Positions 3,843 through 11,225 of a DNA stretch of 64,000 nucleotides are shown here, piece after piece (within the stretch, counting starts at the first letter, position 1; each line of letters starts with the position of its first letter). Origin of the DNA: an uncultured Cellvibrionaceae bacterium (GTDB lineage Bacteria > Pseudomonadota > Gammaproteobacteria > Pseudomonadales > Cellvibrionaceae). The notes under the pieces were generated by a model, which worked only from the letters and a program-made list of their open reading frames with translations, made no database searches and was not told the DNA's origin. The DNA is taken from assembly GCA_965650515.1 (NCBI GenBank), contig CBFGOY010000001.1, positions 59,289 through 123,288 on the forward strand, written 5' to 3'. Made by a program: the position numbers and the translations under genes.

Positions 3843-4328
3843 TCAGCGACTCTCGGGCAAGCGAACCAAACCCTCAAACGGGCATTGGCTGATTAAGGCT
3901 TGCAGTGATTGGCCATCCGGTAGTTGTAAGTTCGGGTCTATATCGGCCAGCGGATACAGCACAAAACTGCGCCGGGTCAGGTAAGGGTGGGGCACATGGA
4001 GGCGCTGGTGCCGGATAGTTTCATTGCCGTACAGGAGCAAGTCCAGGTCCAGGGTACGCGGTCCCCAATGCTGGAGGCGCTGGCGTCGATGAGCTTGCTC
4101 TATCGCTTGCAGTGCATCCAGTAATTCGAGTGGGGCGAGGCCGGTCTCCACCCGTGCGACCGCATTGATATAGTCTGGTTGTTCCGGTCCTATAGCGCGG
4201 CTTTGGTAGAGCGCCGACCGCGTTACCAGGCGGGTTTTTGCGATGGCTTTCAATTCCTCGAAAGCCCGTCCGACCTGGATAAGCGGCTCTTCCAGGTTGC
4301 TACCCAAGCCTATATAGGCAAACACCAT
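3843..4328 (-). CDS. folK: 2-amino-4-hydroxy-6-hydroxymethyldihydropteridine pyrophosphokinase
   Basis: YIGLGSNL, QPDYINAV, WGPRTLDLDLL, PHP motifs. Confidence 0.97.
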   Translation of the reverse strand: MVFAYIGLGSNLEEPLIQVGRAFEELKAIAKTRLVTRSALYQSRAIGPEQPDYINAVARVETGLAPLELLDALQAIEQAHRRQRLQHWGPRTLDLDLLLYGNETIRHQRLHVPHPYLTRRSFVLYPLADIDPNLQLPDGQSLQALISQCPFEGLVRLPESR

Positions 4329-4331
4329 GGG

Positions 4332-5714
4332 TTATTCGTTCCCGCTGCCGGTATCGGTTTTCGGTTTCCGCGGGCCACGGCGCCGGCGGGGTTTACTGCC
4401 GGCTTTGGCGCCGCCCTGTTTGGCCAGTTCTTTTACCATGCGCTCGCGCTCTTCATCGCCAGCGCTTTGGTAATGGGTCCACCACAAACCCAGACCCTCC
4501 AGGGGTTCGCCCGCTGCTTCGCGCATCAGCAGGAAGTCGTAGGCGGCACGGAAGCGCGGATGATCCAGGGTGCGCAGGGCGCGCATTCCCATGCGATTGG
4601 GCAGGCGTTGTTGTAAATCCCAGATTTCACGCATTGGAATCAGGAAGCGCTTGGGAATAGCGGTGCGGGTTAATTGCTGGTTGATGATGTCGGTACCGGC
4701 TTGTGCCCAGGCCTGGACCGGCGTCATCTGGGTGGCCAGTAACTGGAATCGTTGTTGCATCGCTGGCCAGAGCAGTGCGGCGTAAATAAATGCCGGGGTA
4801 ACGGTTTTATCGGAGCGTATGCGCTTATCGGTATTTACCATGCACTGCTCAATGAGGTTCGCGCCTGATTCGTCCGCTGTTTTCAGGGCGGCGTCCGTAC
4901 CGGGGAAAAGATGCAATAACACGTTATATTCACGCAACAGGTTGAATGTCGCCGTTGCCGAGCCGCCCAGGAACAATTTAAGCACTTCTTCAAACAGGCG
5001 TGCCTCGGACACATTCAGCAACAGGTTGCCCAATTCGCGGATAGGTTTGGCGGTGGCCGGATCGATACTAAAACCGAGCTTGGCGGCAAAGCGCAATGCG
5101 CGCAGTATACGCACCGGGTCTTCCTTATAGCGCGTTACAGGGTCGCCGATAATGCGCAGGGTACGGTTTTTCAGGTCTTCCATACCCTTGCAGTAATCAA
5201 TGACGGAAAAGTCCTTCAGGGTGTAATAAAGCGCGTTAACAGTAAAATCGCGCCGCATCGCATCGGTTTCCAGGGTGCCGTAAACATTGTCTCGCAATAG
5301 CATGCCGTCTTCGCTGCGCGCGGAATGATGGGAGGCATCGTCGTGATGGCCGCGAAAGGTGGTTACTTCGATAACCTCCCGCCCCATGCGCACATGGACA
5401 ATCTGGAAGCGCCGCCCCACAATCCGGGCGCTGCGAAACAAGCGTTTTACCTCATCGGGTTTGGCATTGGTTGCCACATCAAAATCTTTCGGGTGGTTGC
5501 CGAGTAATAAGTCGCGTACACCGCCGCCAACCAGGTAAGCGGAATATCCCGCATCTTCCAACTGTTTAATGATCTTTATCGCTGCCTGGCTGATGTTTTT
5601 GCGCGAAATATTATGTTGGTCTCGTGGAATGGTAACGGCGCCATCGCTTGTGCGTCGAGCGGCTACTTTGCCGGAATCCTTTGAGGTAAATAAGTTGAGC
5701 AAGCGTTTGAGCAT
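4332..5714 (-). CDS. pcnB: Poly(A) polymerase I
   Basis: LVGGGVRDLLLG..PKDFDVAT, VGRRF, RRDFTVNAL, EDPVRILRA, HPRFRAAYDF; basic C-terminal tail. Confidence 0.97.
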   Translation of the reverse strand: MLKRLLNLFTSKDSGKVAARRTSDGAVTIPRDQHNISRKNISQAAIKIIKQLEDAGYSAYLVGGGVRDLLLGNHPKDFDVATNAKPDEVKRLFRSARIVGRRFQIVHVRMGREVIEVTTFRGHHDDASHHSARSEDGMLLRDNVYGTLETDAMRRDFTVNALYYTLKDFSVIDYCKGMEDLKNRTLRIIGDPVTRYKEDPVRILRALRFAAKLGFSIDPATAKPIRELGNLLLNVSEARLFEEVLKLFLGGSATATFNLLREYNVLLHLFPGTDAALKTADESGANLIEQCMVNTDKRIRSDKTVTPAFIYAALLWPAMQQRFQLLATQMTPVQAWAQAGTDIINQQLTRTAIPKRFLIPMREIWDLQQRLPNRMGMRALRTLDHPRFRAAYDFLLMREAAGEPLEGLGLWWTHYQSAGDEERERMVKELAKQGGAKAGSKPRRRRGPRKPKTDTGSGNE

Positions 5715-5850
5715 GGTGTATGGGGTAGTTAGTTGCGTGAAAGCGGGAGTTTAGCAGATGATCGGGGTTTTTTACGACATGGCGGAAAGCCGACCGAATT
5801 TGAACCTGGCGTTGGCATGAAAATTTGTGCCGATTTTGCGAATCTGCATA

Positions 5851-5880
5851 AAGCAAAACGGGAAAGCTTTCGCTTTCCCG
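5851..5880 (-). terminator. Intrinsic terminator of the CrcZ-like sRNA
   Basis: Minus strand CGGGAAAGC-GAAA-GCTTTCCCG-TTTTGCTT: perfect 9-bp stem, GNRA loop, U tract. Confidence 0.88.
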
Positions 5881-6069
5881 CTGGAGGGTAGCACCAAGGT
5901 GCTGCAAATTGGCATCTCAATGGGTGCCTCCATGGCAAACATCCAATCTCGCGTGCTATCCCATCCTGTGCCTAGTCAGTAGTCCGCTTTATTTTACTGT
6001 CTTATTGCTCTTGTCTTCTAGCGTGGTCAATCTAAGTTATTGTTTTCGTTATTGTTATATATGTTCTGT

Positions 6070-6245
6070 TGTTATTATTTCTTGTTGTTATGTTTAATCT
6101 TTCAGTTTCTTATTGTTTGTTGTTGTTATGTATTTGCTTCAGTTTCTTATTGTCTATTGTTGTTATTTTAAAATTGATCAGTTTCTTATTATTTGTTGTT
6201 GTTATTAGATTGGGTAAGCTAATTCTTATTATTTGTTTTTGTTAT
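6070..6245 (-). repeat. About five degenerate tandem A-rich units, consensus ATAACAACAACAAA(T/C)AATAAGAAACTGA, period ~37-41 nt
   Basis: The core tcagtttcttatt occurs exactly at + strand 6102-6114, 6139-6151 and 6178-6190, with degenerate copies near 6221-6245 and 6070-6091. Confidence 0.85.
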
Positions 6246-6256
6246 GGCCGACATAG

Positions 6257-6272
6257 AGCATCTCTTGTGCCA
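6257..6272 (-). promoter_or_regulatory. Sigma54 (-24/-12) promoter of the CrcZ-like sRNA
   Basis: TGGCAC-AAGAG-ATGCT against consensus TGGCAC-N5-TTGC; GG/GC spacing is correct. Confidence 0.85.
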
Positions 6273-6291
6273 CTTTTAGAAATCCTAATAA

Positions 6292-6304
6292 TAACAATTG
6301 CTTA
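6292..6304 (+). promoter_or_regulatory. Possible IHF site between UAS and sigma54 promoter
   Basis: TAACAATTGCTTA has one mismatch to WATCAANNNNTTR; the region is AT-rich, so a chance match is possible. Confidence 0.3.
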
Positions 6305-6368
6305 TGTTTTTTGAGGCGGTGTTTATTTCTTTTTGTTATTTCGAACAGTTACAGAATGGTAGCGAGTT

Positions 6369-6395
6369 TGTTACGGGTGGGTAGAGAAAGTAACA
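6369..6395. promoter_or_regulatory. CbrB-type upstream activator palindrome TGTTAC-N15-GTAACA
   Basis: Perfect inverted 6-mers ~100-120 bp upstream of the -24 box, with extra GTAAC/GTTAC half-sites near 6348, 6407 and 6428. Matches TGTTAC/GTAACA half-sites described for Pseudomonas crcZ. Confidence 0.75.
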
Positions 6396-6486
6396 GTTTT
6401 TTTACGGTAACACCCTTGTGGTTAGGGGTAACGGTTTGTCGTTAAAATTGGTATTTGTGGCGTATTTATTAATAAACGTGTCGCTA

Positions 6487-6525
6487 AAAGTAAAAATCCC
6501 CGCTGCTTTACACATAACGGGGATT
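6487..6525 (-). terminator. Probable terminator downstream of cbrB
   Basis: Minus strand AATCCCCG-15 nt-CGGGGATT followed by TTTACTTTT. Confidence 0.6.
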
Positions 6526-6552
6526 CTTCTGGGTGCGAAAAGTAAAAAGGAA

Positions 6553-7962
6553 TTATTTGGCGCTTGTCGCCGAGGCAGAGGCCTTGGTACGGGGAATACC
6601 AAGCCGCTGACGGCGTTCCCACAGGCACTTGCGACTCACACCGAGTTTACGCGCCAGTTCGGTTTCGCTCATGGTGTCCTGGTGTTCAAGGACGAAGCGT
6701 TGGAAATAATCTTCCAGTGACAGGTCTTCGCCAACGTCCTGCCTGCTGCTCCGGCCAGCCAGGCGCGGGGCTTCAATTAATGAGCTGCCGGTGTTGTCAT
6801 CCAAATCAAGGGCTTCCATATCAATCGAAAGCAAATGGTCGCCAATTTCGTTGGCGTCTTCACACAGGATTACCGCGCGTTGCATGGCATTTTCCAATTC
6901 CCGGACATTCCCTGGCCAGTTATAGCTCATGATGGTATCTATCGCGGAGGAGGACAGTTTTAGTTGCGGTTTGCCGAACTGGCCGCAGTAACGCTGCAAC
7001 AGTGATTCGGCAATGTTGATGATGTCGCGGCCGCGCTCACGTAATGGCGGCAATTCCAGTTGGACGACATTGATACGGAAATACAGGTCTTCGCGGAACT
7101 TGCCTTCTTTGGCCAATTTGCGCAGGTCGCGATGGGTAGCCGCCACAAGGCGTACGTCGACTTTGCGTGACTCTACCGAACCGAGGGGACGGACCTCTCC
7201 TTCCTGCAATACGCGCAACAGGCGCGCTTGTGCTTCCAGGGGTAATTCGCCGATTTCATCGAGGAACAGGGTTCCGCCATCCGCTGCCGCCACGAGGCCT
7301 TCGCGGTTATTGGCGGCACCGGTAAATGCCCCTTTTTCATAACCGAAAAGTTCGGATTCAATCAAGGTATCGGGAATGGCGGCACAGTTAACCGAGATCA
7401 TCAGGTGATTGTTGCGGTTGCTTTCTTCGTGCAGGGCGCGCGCCACCAGTTCTTTACCGGTTCCGGTCTCCCCGTGGATAAGCACGGTGGCATTGGTTGG
7501 GGCAACCTTATGGATGCGATTATAAAGGTCTTGCATGACATCGCTCGAACCAATCATACCGGCAATTGCACTGCTGGCGGCCTGGCTGGATGCCGCTGCT
7601 TTACTCGCGGCCTTGGCTTTACCGATGACGCGTTTGACGGCGTTGACCATTTCATCGTGGTCAAATGGCTTGGCGATATAGTCCACCGCACCCATGCGCA
7701 TGGAATCGACTGCCGAACGTAAACTGGCGTAACTGGTCATGATCAGTACCGGCGTATCCCCCGCCAGTTTGATCAGGTCTGTACCAGGGGCGCCGGGCAG
7801 GCGGAGGTCACTGATGATCAGGTCAAAATCCTTGAGCTGGAATTTGGATGTCGCCTCTTTGACAGATGGGGCCTCGCTGACCTCGTACTGGTTGCGCTCT
7901 AGCAGCTTGCGCAGGGCGTTACGGATGATGGTTTCGTCTTCAACAATCAGAATCTTACTCAT
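6553..7962 (-). CDS. cbrB: Sigma54-dependent response regulator CbrB (NtrC family)
   Basis: Receiver ([11 protein letters not shown]), AAA+ ([32 protein letters not shown]), and CbrB-type C-terminal HTH ([43 protein letters not shown]). Confidence 0.93.
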
Positions 7963-8036
7963 AGCTATCCGGGTCTTGCGTGTTAATGTTTACTGGTGTG
8001 GCCCGGGGCATTGCCGCACGGGTCGCGAGTTTTCTG

Positions 8037-11003
8037 TCAGGCGTCCATGAATGCATCAAGATGACGCGGCAGCGTTATCACAAATCTGGCGCCGCGATTA
8101 TGAACCGGATCGGCGGGGCTAATAATATCCATATGGCCGCTGTGGTCTTCAATAATGCTGTAAACCATTGCCAGGCCCAAACCTGTGCCTTCACCGGGTT
8201 CCTTTGTGGTAAAGAAGGGTTCCAGGATGCGCTCGATCAGCTCCGGGGGGATACCGTGCCCCTCGTCGGTAACAGAAACTGTTACCGAATCCTCATCTTC
8301 GTTACTTTCAAGCATAACACGCCCTTGCTCCGGGCTGGCATCCCGCGCATTAGATAAAAGATTTATAAAAACCTGGATAATGCGTTGCGCGTCACCGGCA
8401 ATGATGGCCGTTTTAGGGATGTCATTGCAAAACAGCACCTGGTTTTTATCTTTTTGCAGTGACAGGAGATGGATTGCTTCATTGGCGCAGTCACGAATGG
8501 AAACAGCCTCGAATTCGGATTTACTGGCGTGACCGGCATGGGAAAAGCTGACCAATGACTGCACAATTCGCCCGACCCTATCCGTCTGGCTAAGGATCTG
8601 TTCCGCAGTTTCCAATATTTCCGGATCTTCGGAATCATATTTAAGGTTTTGCGCGAGGCAGGCGATGCCAGTAATCGGATTGCCGATTTCATGGGCGACG
8701 CCCGCCGCCAGGCGGCCCACTGAGGCGAGGCGTTCTGAATGCACCAGCTCCTGTTCCAGCAATTGGGTTTCAGTGACATCTTCCAGCAGCATGACCTGGT
8801 CATATACCCCCGCGGTGATTGGTCCTTCAATGTTGGCTTTATGCAGGCTGATCCAATGGGGGCCGTTATTCAACTCGATCTCTCGCCGGTAGAAATGGGG
8901 TTCTTTGCTTTGGCTGAAATCAATTAACAGGCTGCACCAGGGTTCGGGGATATCTTCGAGGTAGGAGCCGGTCACATCTTCCGTAGGAATGCGGGTCAGG
9001 TTCGCCATGGCGCGGTTCCACATCAATACCTCCATATCGCGGCCCAGCGAGCAGACCGCCATAGGCAATTCTTCCAGTGTCTTGCGATGGTAAAGGCGCA
9101 GGGTATTAAGCTCTGCCGCCATGCCGGTGAGGTGATCTCGGTATTCCGACAGGCGGTTTTCGATCAGGTTGATATCCACTGTGCTCTGGGTTTCGGCGAT
9201 AACGTGGGGGATGTATTTATCCATGATTTCACTGGCCACATGGATACCCATCAGGCTGGAAAGGTTGCCTTCAATCTGGTCGCGCAGGCGGCGCAGGGCG
9301 TAGGGGCGGCGCTCGTCGATGGTGAGATTGAGTTCCTGGAGCGCGATATCCACTTCGCGGCTCGCTGTTACCTTGCCCAGGGGTTTAGCGAGGCGATGCT
9401 TGAATTCCGATGCGGAGTGAACATCCAGTGCCTGGCGTACCGGATGGCTGAGTTCATCCGCCGCACAAAGCTCGGCACTGTATTGCTCATCCTCTGTCTG
9501 CCGGGTACACAATGAAATCACCACGAAGAAGAAGGTATTGAGGCCAAGAGAAATGAGCGTGACCTGGCTCCAGTATTCAATACCAACGGGAATTCTCAGT
9601 TCACCCAGGGGTAGCTGGAGATATTCGATACCGGTCAGGATCGGTAGCAATAAGCCAAGGGCCCAAATGCTGGTACCGACGGACAGGCCGGTAATGAGGC
9701 CGCGTTTGTTGCCCCGGCTCCAAAACACAATGGCGAATGTGGCGGGAAGGAATTGCAGGGTTTCGATAAACGCGGTCATTGCCAGGTGGGCGAGGCTGAA
9801 ACGGTTGTCCAAGACCCAGTAGAACACATAACCGCCGGCGAAGATGGCGGCGATCAGCACCCGTCGCAACCAGATCAATTGGCTGTAGAGATCGGTCCGG
9901 GTGCGCAGCTTGAGGCTGGGCAATAACCAATGGTTCATCACCATGGTTGAGAGGGCGAGGGAAATAATCACCATGGCCCCGGTTGCGGCTGAAAGCCCAC
10001 CCAGGAACGCCAGCAAGGTTAGCCCTGGTGAATCGAACAGGATGGGAACACCCAGCGAATAGTATTGTGGCGGTAAAGGGACCGACAGTTCGGTGCCCGC
10101 CCACAGGATCGGGAAAATCGGCAGTGCCATTAACAACAGGAACAGCGGGAAGGCCCAGGTTACTGTATGGGAGTTACGCATCAGCGGGTTTTCCGCCAAT
10201 CCCAGATGGAAGATATGCGGCATGGTTACCGCGGTGGAGACAAACACCAGTAACAGCGTATGTGCGGAATCGGTATGAATAGGGGTATGCAGGAGTGCAA
10301 GGTTTTCAGGGTGGTCGAGCAGCCATTGGTCGAGGCCGTCCAAACCATCGAATACCCCATAAACCGCTACCAGGCCAACCGCGCAAAGGGCGCAAACCTT
10401 TAACAATGACTCAAATGCCATCGCCGTAATCAGCCCGCGATGCTGGTCGCGGTTGGCGCCGAAAGAAATGGTAAAAAACGCCAATATCGCGCAGTAACAA
10501 AGGGCCATTACATCTTTAAAGGTCAGTCCGGTTCCGGCGAGGGGTAACGAAGGGTTACTGCTGACGGTAAGGATATGCATGGTATCGGCAATCGCCTGGA
10601 TTTGCAGGGCGAGCAACGGCAAGATCCCGCATAGCATACAAAGTGTTGTGAGCGCGCCCACGCTGTGGCTGTGGTAGCGGAATACCAGCAAATCGGCCAA
10701 TGAATGTACCTGGTGGCGCCGCGCCAATTCGGCCAGCGGTGCCAGGGCAACGGGTGCGAACAGGAAGAGTGCGCCGGTGCCAAGGTAATACGCCAGGGCG
10801 CCATAGCCATACTGGAACGCAAGGTCGATGACCCCGTAGAAGGCCCAGGCGCTGGCAAAAATCCCAAGGGACAAAATATAGGTAATGGGATGGGATGTTA
10901 CTGATTCGGGAATCCAGCCGCGCTCGGTAATCCAGGCGATACCAAACAATAGCAACAGGTAACCGATTCCGAGGAGTGCAACTTGGCTGAGGTCAAAAGT
11001 CAT
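8037..11003 (-). CDS. cbrA: SLC5-transporter-fused sensor histidine kinase CbrA
   Basis: ~13 TM SSF-like N-terminus, linker/STAC-like region, PAS (VLMWNRAM), H-box [32 protein letters not shown]. Confidence 0.93.
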
Positions 11004-11042: not shown

Positions 11043-11225
11043 TCAATCAATGTCGTGGTACTTCTTGCGCCGCAACTGGATCGCAAACGCAATTCCGATC
11101 ACCAGGATCCATGCAATATAAGGCCGATACCAGGCACCTTCAGGGTTGATAATCCAGTTAAACAGGCTGGGAGAAAAAATATAGGCAATCAGCAACAGTA
11201 ATATGACCAGGCGTTGATTGTTCAT
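11043..11225 (-). CDS. cbrX: CbrX-like 60-aa membrane peptide
   Basis: MNNQRLVILLLLIAYIFSPSLFNWIINPEGAWYRPYIAWILVIGIAFAIQLRRKKYHDID; two hydrophobic segments and the GAWYRPY motif I recall from Pseudomonas CbrX; directly upstream of cbrA. Confidence 0.85.
   Translation of the reverse strand: MNNQRLVILLLLIAYIFSPSLFNWIINPEGAWYRPYIAWILVIGIAFAIQLRRKKYHDID

Follow-up and report, generated by a model that had tools for sequence, protein, structure and literature searches.

The window analysed here is a stretch of 64,000 nucleotides (nt) from an uncultured member of the Cellvibrionaceae (assembly GCA_965650515.1, contig CBFGOY010000001.1, positions 59,289 to 123,288), and our subject is a gene for a small RNA (sRNA) at positions 5851 to 6245 of its minus strand. 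This is a real, conserved and expressed sRNA gene. It lies in an 838-nt gap within a series of genes that all share the minus strand, in the order cbrA, cbrB, the gap, pcnB and folK, and thus stands directly downstream of cbrB and upstream of pcnB. Its predicted extent of about 395 nt, from a transcription start (+1) at A6245 or C6246 through the end of a terminator U-tract, is based on a calibration of the promoter, on the terminator, on an alignment across the genus and on contigs from public RNA-type sequencing runs. An earlier note, made from the sequence alone, had placed a minus-strand unit in the gap between cbrB and pcnB, running from a sigma-54 promoter to a terminator with a GAAA loop, and both ends are indeed there, the promoter box at 6272-6257 and the terminator stem at 5882-5857. 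The host is a Cellvibrio, which the NCBI taxonomy assigns to the family Cellvibrionaceae of the order Cellvibrionales, that is, outside the Pseudomonadaceae as currently defined, as the note had supposed. Older taxonomies placed Cellvibrio inside the Pseudomonadaceae, and GTDB includes the Cellvibrionaceae in the order Pseudomonadales, so that the phylogenetic jump from Pseudomonas to Cellvibrio is a moderate one.

The sigma-54 promoter, read from the sequence as TGGCAC-N5-ATGCT, occupies positions 6257-6272 of the minus strand (GG at 6271-6270, GC at 6259-6258) and is invariant in the genus alignment. At the equivalent place, 23 of the 27 loci scanned have a sigma-54 box scoring 9 or 10 out of 11. 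The +1 is placed at about 6245/6246 by calibration on three Pseudomonas control loci, where the box starts exactly 27 nt ahead of the first position that matches the Rfam CrcZ model. Genome-wide, no other sigma-54 box precedes a comparable A-rich array.

Farther upstream on the same strand lies a CbrB-type upstream activating region (6348-6433) with five half-sites, three of them forward (GTTAC at 6432-6428, TGTTAC at 6412-6407 and again at 6395-6390) and two reverse (GTAACA at 6374-6369 and GTAAC at 6352-6348), among which the pair from 6395 to 6369 reads TGTTAC-N15-GTAACA. The half-sites are invariant in 21 species and the spacers between them are variable. Nearer to the promoter, a minus-strand site at 6292-6304, TAAGCAATTGTTA, fits in our reading the reverse-complement consensus of integration host factor (IHF), YAANNNNTTGATW, at 8 of 9 specified positions, and its TAA-N4-TTG columns are conserved genus-wide. 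Between the activating region and this IHF-like site stands a GAAATAAC box (6335-6342, minus strand), which is kept in all 21 Cellvibrio sequences among varying neighbours and for which we know of no assigned factor. An alignment of the 240 nt upstream of the +1 from 21 Cellvibrio species gives a clear footprint: the half-sites, the GAAATAAC box, the IHF-like element and the -24/-12 box are invariant, and nearly all of the intervening sequence drifts. In Pseudomonas putida, the CbrB subsites TGTTAC/GTAACA at crcZ, crcY and PP2810 are 12-16 nt apart, with an IHF site between the subsites and the promoter (PMC6296734). The Cellvibrio locus combines the same three elements, a sigma-54 promoter, CbrB subsites and an IHF-like site, the last in the same placement as at P. 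putida crcZ (PMC6296734).

Immediately behind the start of the RNA begins an A-rich array (6035-6243, minus strand) of six modules, each approximately (AAN)4-A-(AAN)4: M1 at 6243-6223, M2 at 6206-6182, M3 at 6167-6143, M4 at 6130-6106, M5 at 6092-6068 and a degenerate M6 at 6056-6035. The modules start at RNA positions 3, 40, 79, 116, 154 and 190, with a spacing of 36-39 nt. The RNA is of very uneven composition, positions 1-215 with the array having 60% A and 7% G and positions 258-395 having 54% GC. The 13-mer AATAAGAAACTGA is found in three exact copies (6190-6178, 6151-6139 and 6114-6102) as against 0.01 expected, at the ends of M2 to M4; three modules end in ...AAUAAGAAACUGA. The earlier note had described an almost unstructured A-rich 5' part with about five direct repeats at a period of 37-41 nt, a core exactly repeated three times and a GC-richer 3' third, a description which agrees well with these data. 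Tandem Repeats Finder reports a period of 76 nt with 2.1 copies, and the repeat search a 17-mer in five copies with spacings of 38, 76 and 40 nt. The autocorrelation of the array is only modestly above that of shuffled sequences (0.54 at lag 76; the maxima of the shuffles average 0.50 and go up to 0.565), as the spacers differ by 1-4 nt and blur the period.

The density of potential Hfq motifs in this array is unique in the genome. Within 250 nt the locus has 22 overlapping starts of AAnAAnAA (12 when counted without overlap), which makes it the top cluster of the 4.38-Mb genome, followed by a runner-up with 8 and a background of 0.83 per kb per strand. Runs of at least four ARN triplets number ten here, with 53 triplets, versus five to six runs with 24-29 triplets in three Pseudomonas CrcZ sequences. 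These motifs are predicted to be single-stranded, since RNAalifold leaves the array unpaired in its consensus and the fold of the single sequence gives it hardly any pairs. The pentamer ACUGA occurs four times (6182-6178, 6143-6139, 6106-6102 and 5980-5976, i.e. RNA positions 64, 103, 140 and 266), behind modules 2-4 and at the opening of the 3' core. Cellvibrio species share this pentamer, and Pseudomonas CrcZ has it too (AACUGAUUC).

The 3' domain (5884-5988, minus strand) is GC-richer and structured, begins with AAAGCGGA..ACUGACUAGGCA and contains invariant GGA boxes (AGGAUGGGA, UUGGAU). Mean column identity across the genus is 80% in the last 140 nt, and the single-sequence fold has a z-score of -4.1, which is driven by the 3' part. 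In the proposed helices 88% of the cells pair, versus 42-53% when the partners are slid. Compensatory changes on both sides were found for four pairs: a GGCA/UGCC helix has two of them, and a small hairpin and the terminator have one each. The GGCA/UGCC helix (5911-5972, minus strand; GGCA at 5972-5969, UGCC at 5914-5911) encloses an inner hairpin and is 100% paired, with two pairs changed from GC to AU on both sides in one species. The small hairpin UGCC-AUGGA-GGCA (5925-5937, minus strand) presents an NGGA loop, and its closing C-G pair shows compensatory change to A-U or U-A; in other clades we read from the alignment a register-shifted stem that still has A(C/U)GGA(A) in the loop. As covariation within the genus is sparse, amounting to these four pairs, the detailed fold of the 3' domain is tentative, and an AGCAC/GUGCU hairpin competes with a long-range GGAUGGG/CCCUCC helix, the data favouring neither. 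The three invariant GGA boxes within 5925-5966 (AGGAUGGGA, UUGGAU and the A(U/C)GGA hairpin loop) resemble CsrA/RsmA sites. A csrA gene is encoded in the genome (L282), and Pseudomonas CrcZ has, in our reading, a similar GAUCA-CGGAA-UGAUC hairpin.

An intrinsic terminator (5851-5882, minus strand) closes the gene, with a stem at 5882-5857 that contains a 9-base-pair perfect core (CGGGAAAGC/GCUUUCCCG), a GAAA tetraloop and a U-tract at 5856-5851. The stem is the only terminator-like site between 5500 and 6700, and it is 100% paired in 21 species, including one double change from G-C to U-A. Both the promoter and the hairpin with its U-tract were found on the minus strand only.

Expression was assessed with those public runs that contain the stretch. 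In three RNA-type runs from three studies, with the library type recorded as 'RNA?', the strandless contigs span only 5853-6223, 5862-6228 and 5959-6228, with zero depth across pcnB and cbrB; a probable DNA run spans the whole 1.6 kb. Contigs confined to 5853-6228 and a terminator at the same end delimit a discrete sRNA, and DNA contamination would not give contigs that are about as long as the sRNA and end at the terminator. It is our guess that such an A-rich RNA is carried into libraries primed with oligo-dT. In run X5, a 398-nt contig that ends at 5853 continues past the terminator with 27 non-genomic A-rich letters (RNA strand AAAAAAGAAAAAAACACAAAAAUAAUA), either an artefact of the assembly or possibly a non-templated tail, which would be intriguing with pcnB next door. 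In run X7 (record 11, window positions 5941-6208) a second contig, 90-95% alike, skips 204 nt and has 90 other letters instead; it probably represents an orthologue from another Cellvibrio strain, in which the modules are arranged differently. A coding gene was considered and rejected for this interval, in which the longest open frames reach at most 43 codons, stops abound in the A-rich part, and insertions or deletions of 1-2 nt separate close relatives in the 3' domain.

The locus is widely retained in the genus. A BLAST search, as the earlier note had proposed, recovered it in 20 of the 24 Cellvibrio genomes sampled; of the four in which it was missed, three have a completeness of 64-81% and one of 97%. 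Each of the 20 loci fetched (20/20) has promoter, array, core and terminator, and so does C. mixtus. The length of the RNA ranges from 291 to 430 nt and follows the number of modules, with a slope of 33 nt per module (r = 0.87).

The history of the array can be approached by comparing its units. As whole units, modules that occupy the same position in different species are 83% alike, versus 72% for modules within one RNA; for spacers the corresponding values are 65% and 46%, and the cores of same-position modules reach 94% identity between species. Single modules are recognisable in Marinimicrobium, Gilvimarinus and strain SEMH9, e.g. the CAAUAGACAAUAAGAA module, which is 90% identical to a module of Marinimicrobium, and module 2, which is 97% identical to one in SEMH9. 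Analogous arrays follow cbrB in all four other genera of the family sampled, and a spacing of 35-41 nt is kept at nearly all intervals in nine other family-level RNAs; it recurs at most intervals in Gilvimarinus, Marinimicrobium, Exilibacterium, SEMH9 and Marinagarivorans. Because same-position modules are more alike between species than modules are within one RNA, and because some are traceable across genera, the array is old. Judged from these comparisons, it is ancient at the level of the family and changes by whole units, with no recent amplification in Cellvibrio. The earlier note had suggested that the binding modules arose by tandem duplication: such an origin is plausible, but it would be an ancient one.

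The proteins with which such an RNA would work are encoded in the host. The cbrB orthologue (6553-7962, minus strand) encodes an NtrC-family protein of 469 amino acids with a receiver and a sigma-54 AAA+ domain, 96% identical to CbrB of C. mixtus J3-8 and 64-67% identical to Pseudomonas CbrB, and it is the sole match at E<=1e-150 within the genome from which the window comes. The cbrA orthologue (8037-11003, minus strand; 988 amino acids) has about 12 N-terminal transmembrane segments followed by PAS-HisKA-HATPase, and its product shares 49% identity with Pseudomonas CbrA across residues 170-984. Ahead of it, a CbrX-like hydrophobic open reading frame of 60 amino acids (MNNQRLV...GAWYRPY...; 11043-11225, minus strand) stops 39 nt before the cbrA start, and the spacer between the two contains AAUAAGAA immediately upstream of the ATG. 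The downstream neighbour of the RNA gene, as in Pseudomonas, is pcnB (4332-5714, minus strand), the gene for poly(A) polymerase (TIGR01942, 1.3e-166). The genome also encodes rpoN and an Hfq of 88 amino acids that includes a IYLVNGIKLQGQ stretch, which we take to be the distal face. Of the Exo_endo_phos genes in the genome, the two that score best are true ExoIII homologues and a third is a Crc orthologue, its best match in PDB being Crc of P. aeruginosa (3.6e-59), so that both Hfq and Crc are present. In the complete genome of a relative, the Crc copy (L152:1674-2441) is 47% identical to Pseudomonas Crc and is a divergent neighbour of pyrE, presumably the arrangement of Pseudomonas crc as well. 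The E, DxN and D positions of this copy, which we assume to be the catalytic residues of ExoIII, are replaced as they are in Crc.

In its overall design the Cellvibrio RNA closely resembles CrcZ of P. aeruginosa and P. putida (RF01675; paralogues CrcY and CrcX). Both are located between cbrB and pcnB on the same strand and have a sigma-54 promoter, TGTTAC/GTAACA CbrB subsites and an IHF-like site; both have a length of about 400 nt, several AAnAAnAA (ARN) motifs for Hfq (here identified from sequence) and an intrinsic terminator, in genomes that encode Hfq and Crc; and both contain short boxes, namely ACUGA and a box like GGAGAGG-UUUGC. The architecture, however, is distinct: tandem, phased and with roughly double the ARN load. 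In Pseudomonas CrcZ the motifs are six in number, short (4-5 triplets each) and dispersed between structured domains that lie at both ends, whereas in Cellvibrio six bipartite modules with about twice as many ARN triplets stand head-to-tail in the 5' 215 nt and all of the structure is at the 3' side. A CrcY-like second gene was searched for genome-wide and none was found, the Cellvibrio RNA being single-copy.

Two other systems invite comparison. The CrcZ and CrcY of Azotobacter vinelandii are recognisable CrcZ-family sequences from outside the genus Pseudomonas. They are described as CbrAB-dependent sRNAs that antagonize Hfq-Crc (PMC6292655), as the RNA discussed here is proposed to be. In contrast to it, they belong to the CrcZ family by sequence and to a host within the Pseudomonadaceae. 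CsrB, RsmY and RsmZ likewise titrate a global translational repressor by means of short motifs repeated on one RNA, but these are GGA motifs in hairpin loops, for CsrA/RsmA, and the RNAs are driven by GacA/UvrY, whereas the Cellvibrio RNA offers predicted single-stranded ARN tracts for Hfq and would be driven by CbrB and sigma-54. According to reviews, CbrAB and crcZ are exclusive to the Pseudomonadaceae (PMC8871633, PMC6296734). Our literature search found no paper naming CrcZ alongside Cellvibrio, Saccharophagus, Teredinibacter, Microbulbifer, Marinobacter or Cellvibrionales, in line with the earlier note, whose author was not aware of any such RNA characterised in this group.

Loci of a similar kind extend well beyond the family. 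In a sample of 151 high-quality genomes from the whole GTDB order, 111 have a CbrB orthologue (at least 56% identity, E<=1e-150). A further 30 loci, belonging to 10 family codes, were inspected, and 29 of them have a sigma-54 box followed by A-rich motifs downstream of cbrB. Many families have a mini form of only 75-110 nt, consisting of a sigma-54 box, 2-4 AAnAAnAA motifs and a terminator hairpin of the type GAGACCUGGAUGGGGAA-loop-UUCCCC (loci L121-L145). Mini forms are often present as two tandem units, e.g. in Halioglobus (L223), Haliea (L181), Pseudohaliea (L185) and Dasania (L233). The second unit is 100-200 nt further on, and in Dasania it has its own GTTAC/GTAAC sites. A scan of genome contigs with a 15-nt pattern returned mostly chance matches, the relevant ones being confined to Halioglobus, Haliea, Pseudohaliea, Dasania and two gammaproteobacterial metagenome-assembled genomes.

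We conclude that this single-copy RNA of about 395 nt is most probably a sponge for Hfq, or for Hfq and Crc, driven by CbrB and sigma-54, and as such the positional and functional counterpart of CrcZ. On poor carbon sources CbrA would activate CbrB, which would bind the five GTTAC/GTAAC half-sites and, aided by an IHF-bent spacer, drive the sigma-54 promoter. The unstructured 5' two-thirds of the transcript would display six phased modules, each corresponding to about one Hfq distal face (six ARN triplets), and because of this correspondence one RNA could hold several Hfq hexamers, probably with Crc. Catabolic mRNAs would in this way lose the Hfq bound to A-rich sites at their ribosome-binding regions, so that catabolite repression would be relieved, and the 3' domain with the terminator hairpin would provide a defined 3' end and, as we assume, stabilise the RNA. 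The proposal of the earlier note that this is a CrcZ-type sponge is supported by what was observed, i.e. the anatomy of the gene in its cbrB-pcnB position, the promoter footprints, the genome-unique density of ARN triplets, the conservation, the discrete RNA-type contigs and the presence of all protein partners; the dependence on CbrB, the binding of Hfq and Crc with its stoichiometry, and the regulatory outcome we infer.

Several points weigh against this conclusion. The Rfam CrcZ model, which the earlier note had proposed as a check, has no match in window positions 4000-8500 even at E<=10, while the three Pseudomonas control loci score 324-343 bits at a gathering threshold of 95 bits; position and design make the RNA CrcZ-like, but by sequence it does not belong to RF01675. 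Likewise, an nhmmer profile of the Cellvibrio core found nothing in 56 Pseudomonas loci at E<=10, and a profile of 55 Pseudomonas CrcZ sequences found no Cellvibrio locus at E<=1, i.e. the primary sequences are not alignable. As cross-detection fails both ways, we do not claim family membership at the sequence level, and because the profiles miss each other, common descent rests on position, design and short boxes. In relatives from other genera, sub-threshold CrcZ scores of 15-26 bits are found, those of SEMH9 (26) and Agarilytica (25) at the right place. The box ACUGA-N(3-25)-GGAGAGG-N-UUUGC occurs in 6 of 281 loci, all downstream of cbrB (one each in the Cellvibrionaceae relatives Exilibacterium and Simiduia, two in Microbulbifer and two in Pseudomonadaceae), and the Cellvibrio RNA has a degenerate box of the ACUGA/GGAGAGG-UUUGC type, ACUGACUAGGCACAGGAUGGGAUAGCA. 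We read this as divergent orthology with Pseudomonas CrcZ, what is firmly established being position and design. On the side of the partners, crc of this assembly is cut by a contig end at about residue 22-46 (contig C17 end; L105:1408-2049, minus strand), and full-length copies are present in 22 of 24 genomes of the genus. A crude scan for AAnAAnAAnAA within -32 to +15 of roughly called start codons gave 13 genes without a catabolic theme (the eight annotated ones comprise an ABC permease, CheZ, an ECF sigma factor, a histidine kinase and four others); because the gene calls are rough, it neither supports nor refutes a regulon. Finally, the runs that document expression are those with the library type 'RNA?' and strandless contigs, and between the contigs and the predicted +1 there is a gap of 17-22 nt, which falls in repeated sequence.

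The conserved 3' domain raises the possibility that the main task of the RNA is located there, as a base-pairing sRNA or as a decoy for a different protein, for example CsrA/RsmA, through the GGA boxes, with the A-rich part as no more than a landing pad for Hfq. This domain is the most conserved part of the RNA, a hairpin with covariation support presents one of its three invariant GGA boxes in the loop, the genome has a gene for CsrA, and the GAUCA-CGGAA-UGAUC hairpin of Pseudomonas CrcZ is similar. On the other hand, a CsrA sponge would be expected to have more than three GGA boxes, of which just one is in a supported loop here, there is no Rfam match of the CsrB/RsmY/RsmZ type, and a preprint on cross-linking and immunoprecipitation sequencing (CLIP-seq) of RsmA/N is without any mention of CrcZ. 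Furthermore, six phased modules, unique in the genome, go far beyond the needs of a landing pad, and many related families keep just the A-rich motifs and the terminator without such a domain. We therefore regard this explanation as unlikely, although it could also describe a second function beside sponging.

Alternatively, there might be no independent gene at all, the RNA being either processed from the 3' end of the cbrB mRNA or the 5' leader of pcnB. We found no terminator between cbrB and the array, pcnB follows 143 nt downstream on the same strand, and in P. putida CrcZ derives in part from cbrB read-through with subsequent processing (PMC8871633). Yet the Cellvibrio RNA has an invariant sigma-54 promoter and upstream activating region of its own and a strong, conserved terminator ahead of pcnB, and the RNA-type contigs end at 5853-5862 and enter neither pcnB nor cbrB, which makes this alternative very improbable. 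That the array is a chance AT-rich spacer of simple repeats with no function of its own hardly deserves credence: intergenic DNA is often A/T-rich and the array autocorrelation is modestly above shuffles, but the locus is the top outlier of the genome with its three exact 13-mer copies, module cores are 94% identical between species versus 65% for spacers, the spacing is kept in other family-level RNAs, and conservation and expression as a discrete RNA already contradict it.

If the RNA is an Hfq sponge as we propose, the regularity of its array may have a reason. The phasing of 36-41 nt was perhaps selected for cooperative packing of Hfq, or Hfq with Crc, of which five to six hexamers would sit on one RNA like beads on a string; the number of modules would then set the capacity throughout the order, and Pseudomonas CrcZ would be one derived branch of an older order-wide family. 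This suggestion, which we put forward tentatively and think somewhat more apt to fail than to hold, takes up two observations: the mini forms of Halieaceae have about 2 modules and the Cellvibrio RNA about 6-7, and the phasing of bipartite modules is kept across Cellvibrionaceae genera while spacer sequences drift.

The CbrAB-crcZ circuit thus probably extends beyond the pseudomonads, to which reviews confine it, and most of this RNA family escapes the Rfam CrcZ model. Cellvibrio has the parts of the circuit, namely a cbrX-like peptide, CbrA, CbrB, the upstream activating region, a sigma-54 promoter, the A-rich RNA, Hfq and Crc, and its very regular array is a natural substrate for studying the assembly of multiple Hfq-Crc units on one RNA. 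Cellvibrio is a model genus for the degradation of plant polysaccharides, and its carbon catabolite control, and hence the expression of its carbohydrate-active enzymes, may follow the Hfq/Crc logic of Pseudomonas rather than the cyclic AMP (cAMP) logic of enterobacteria.

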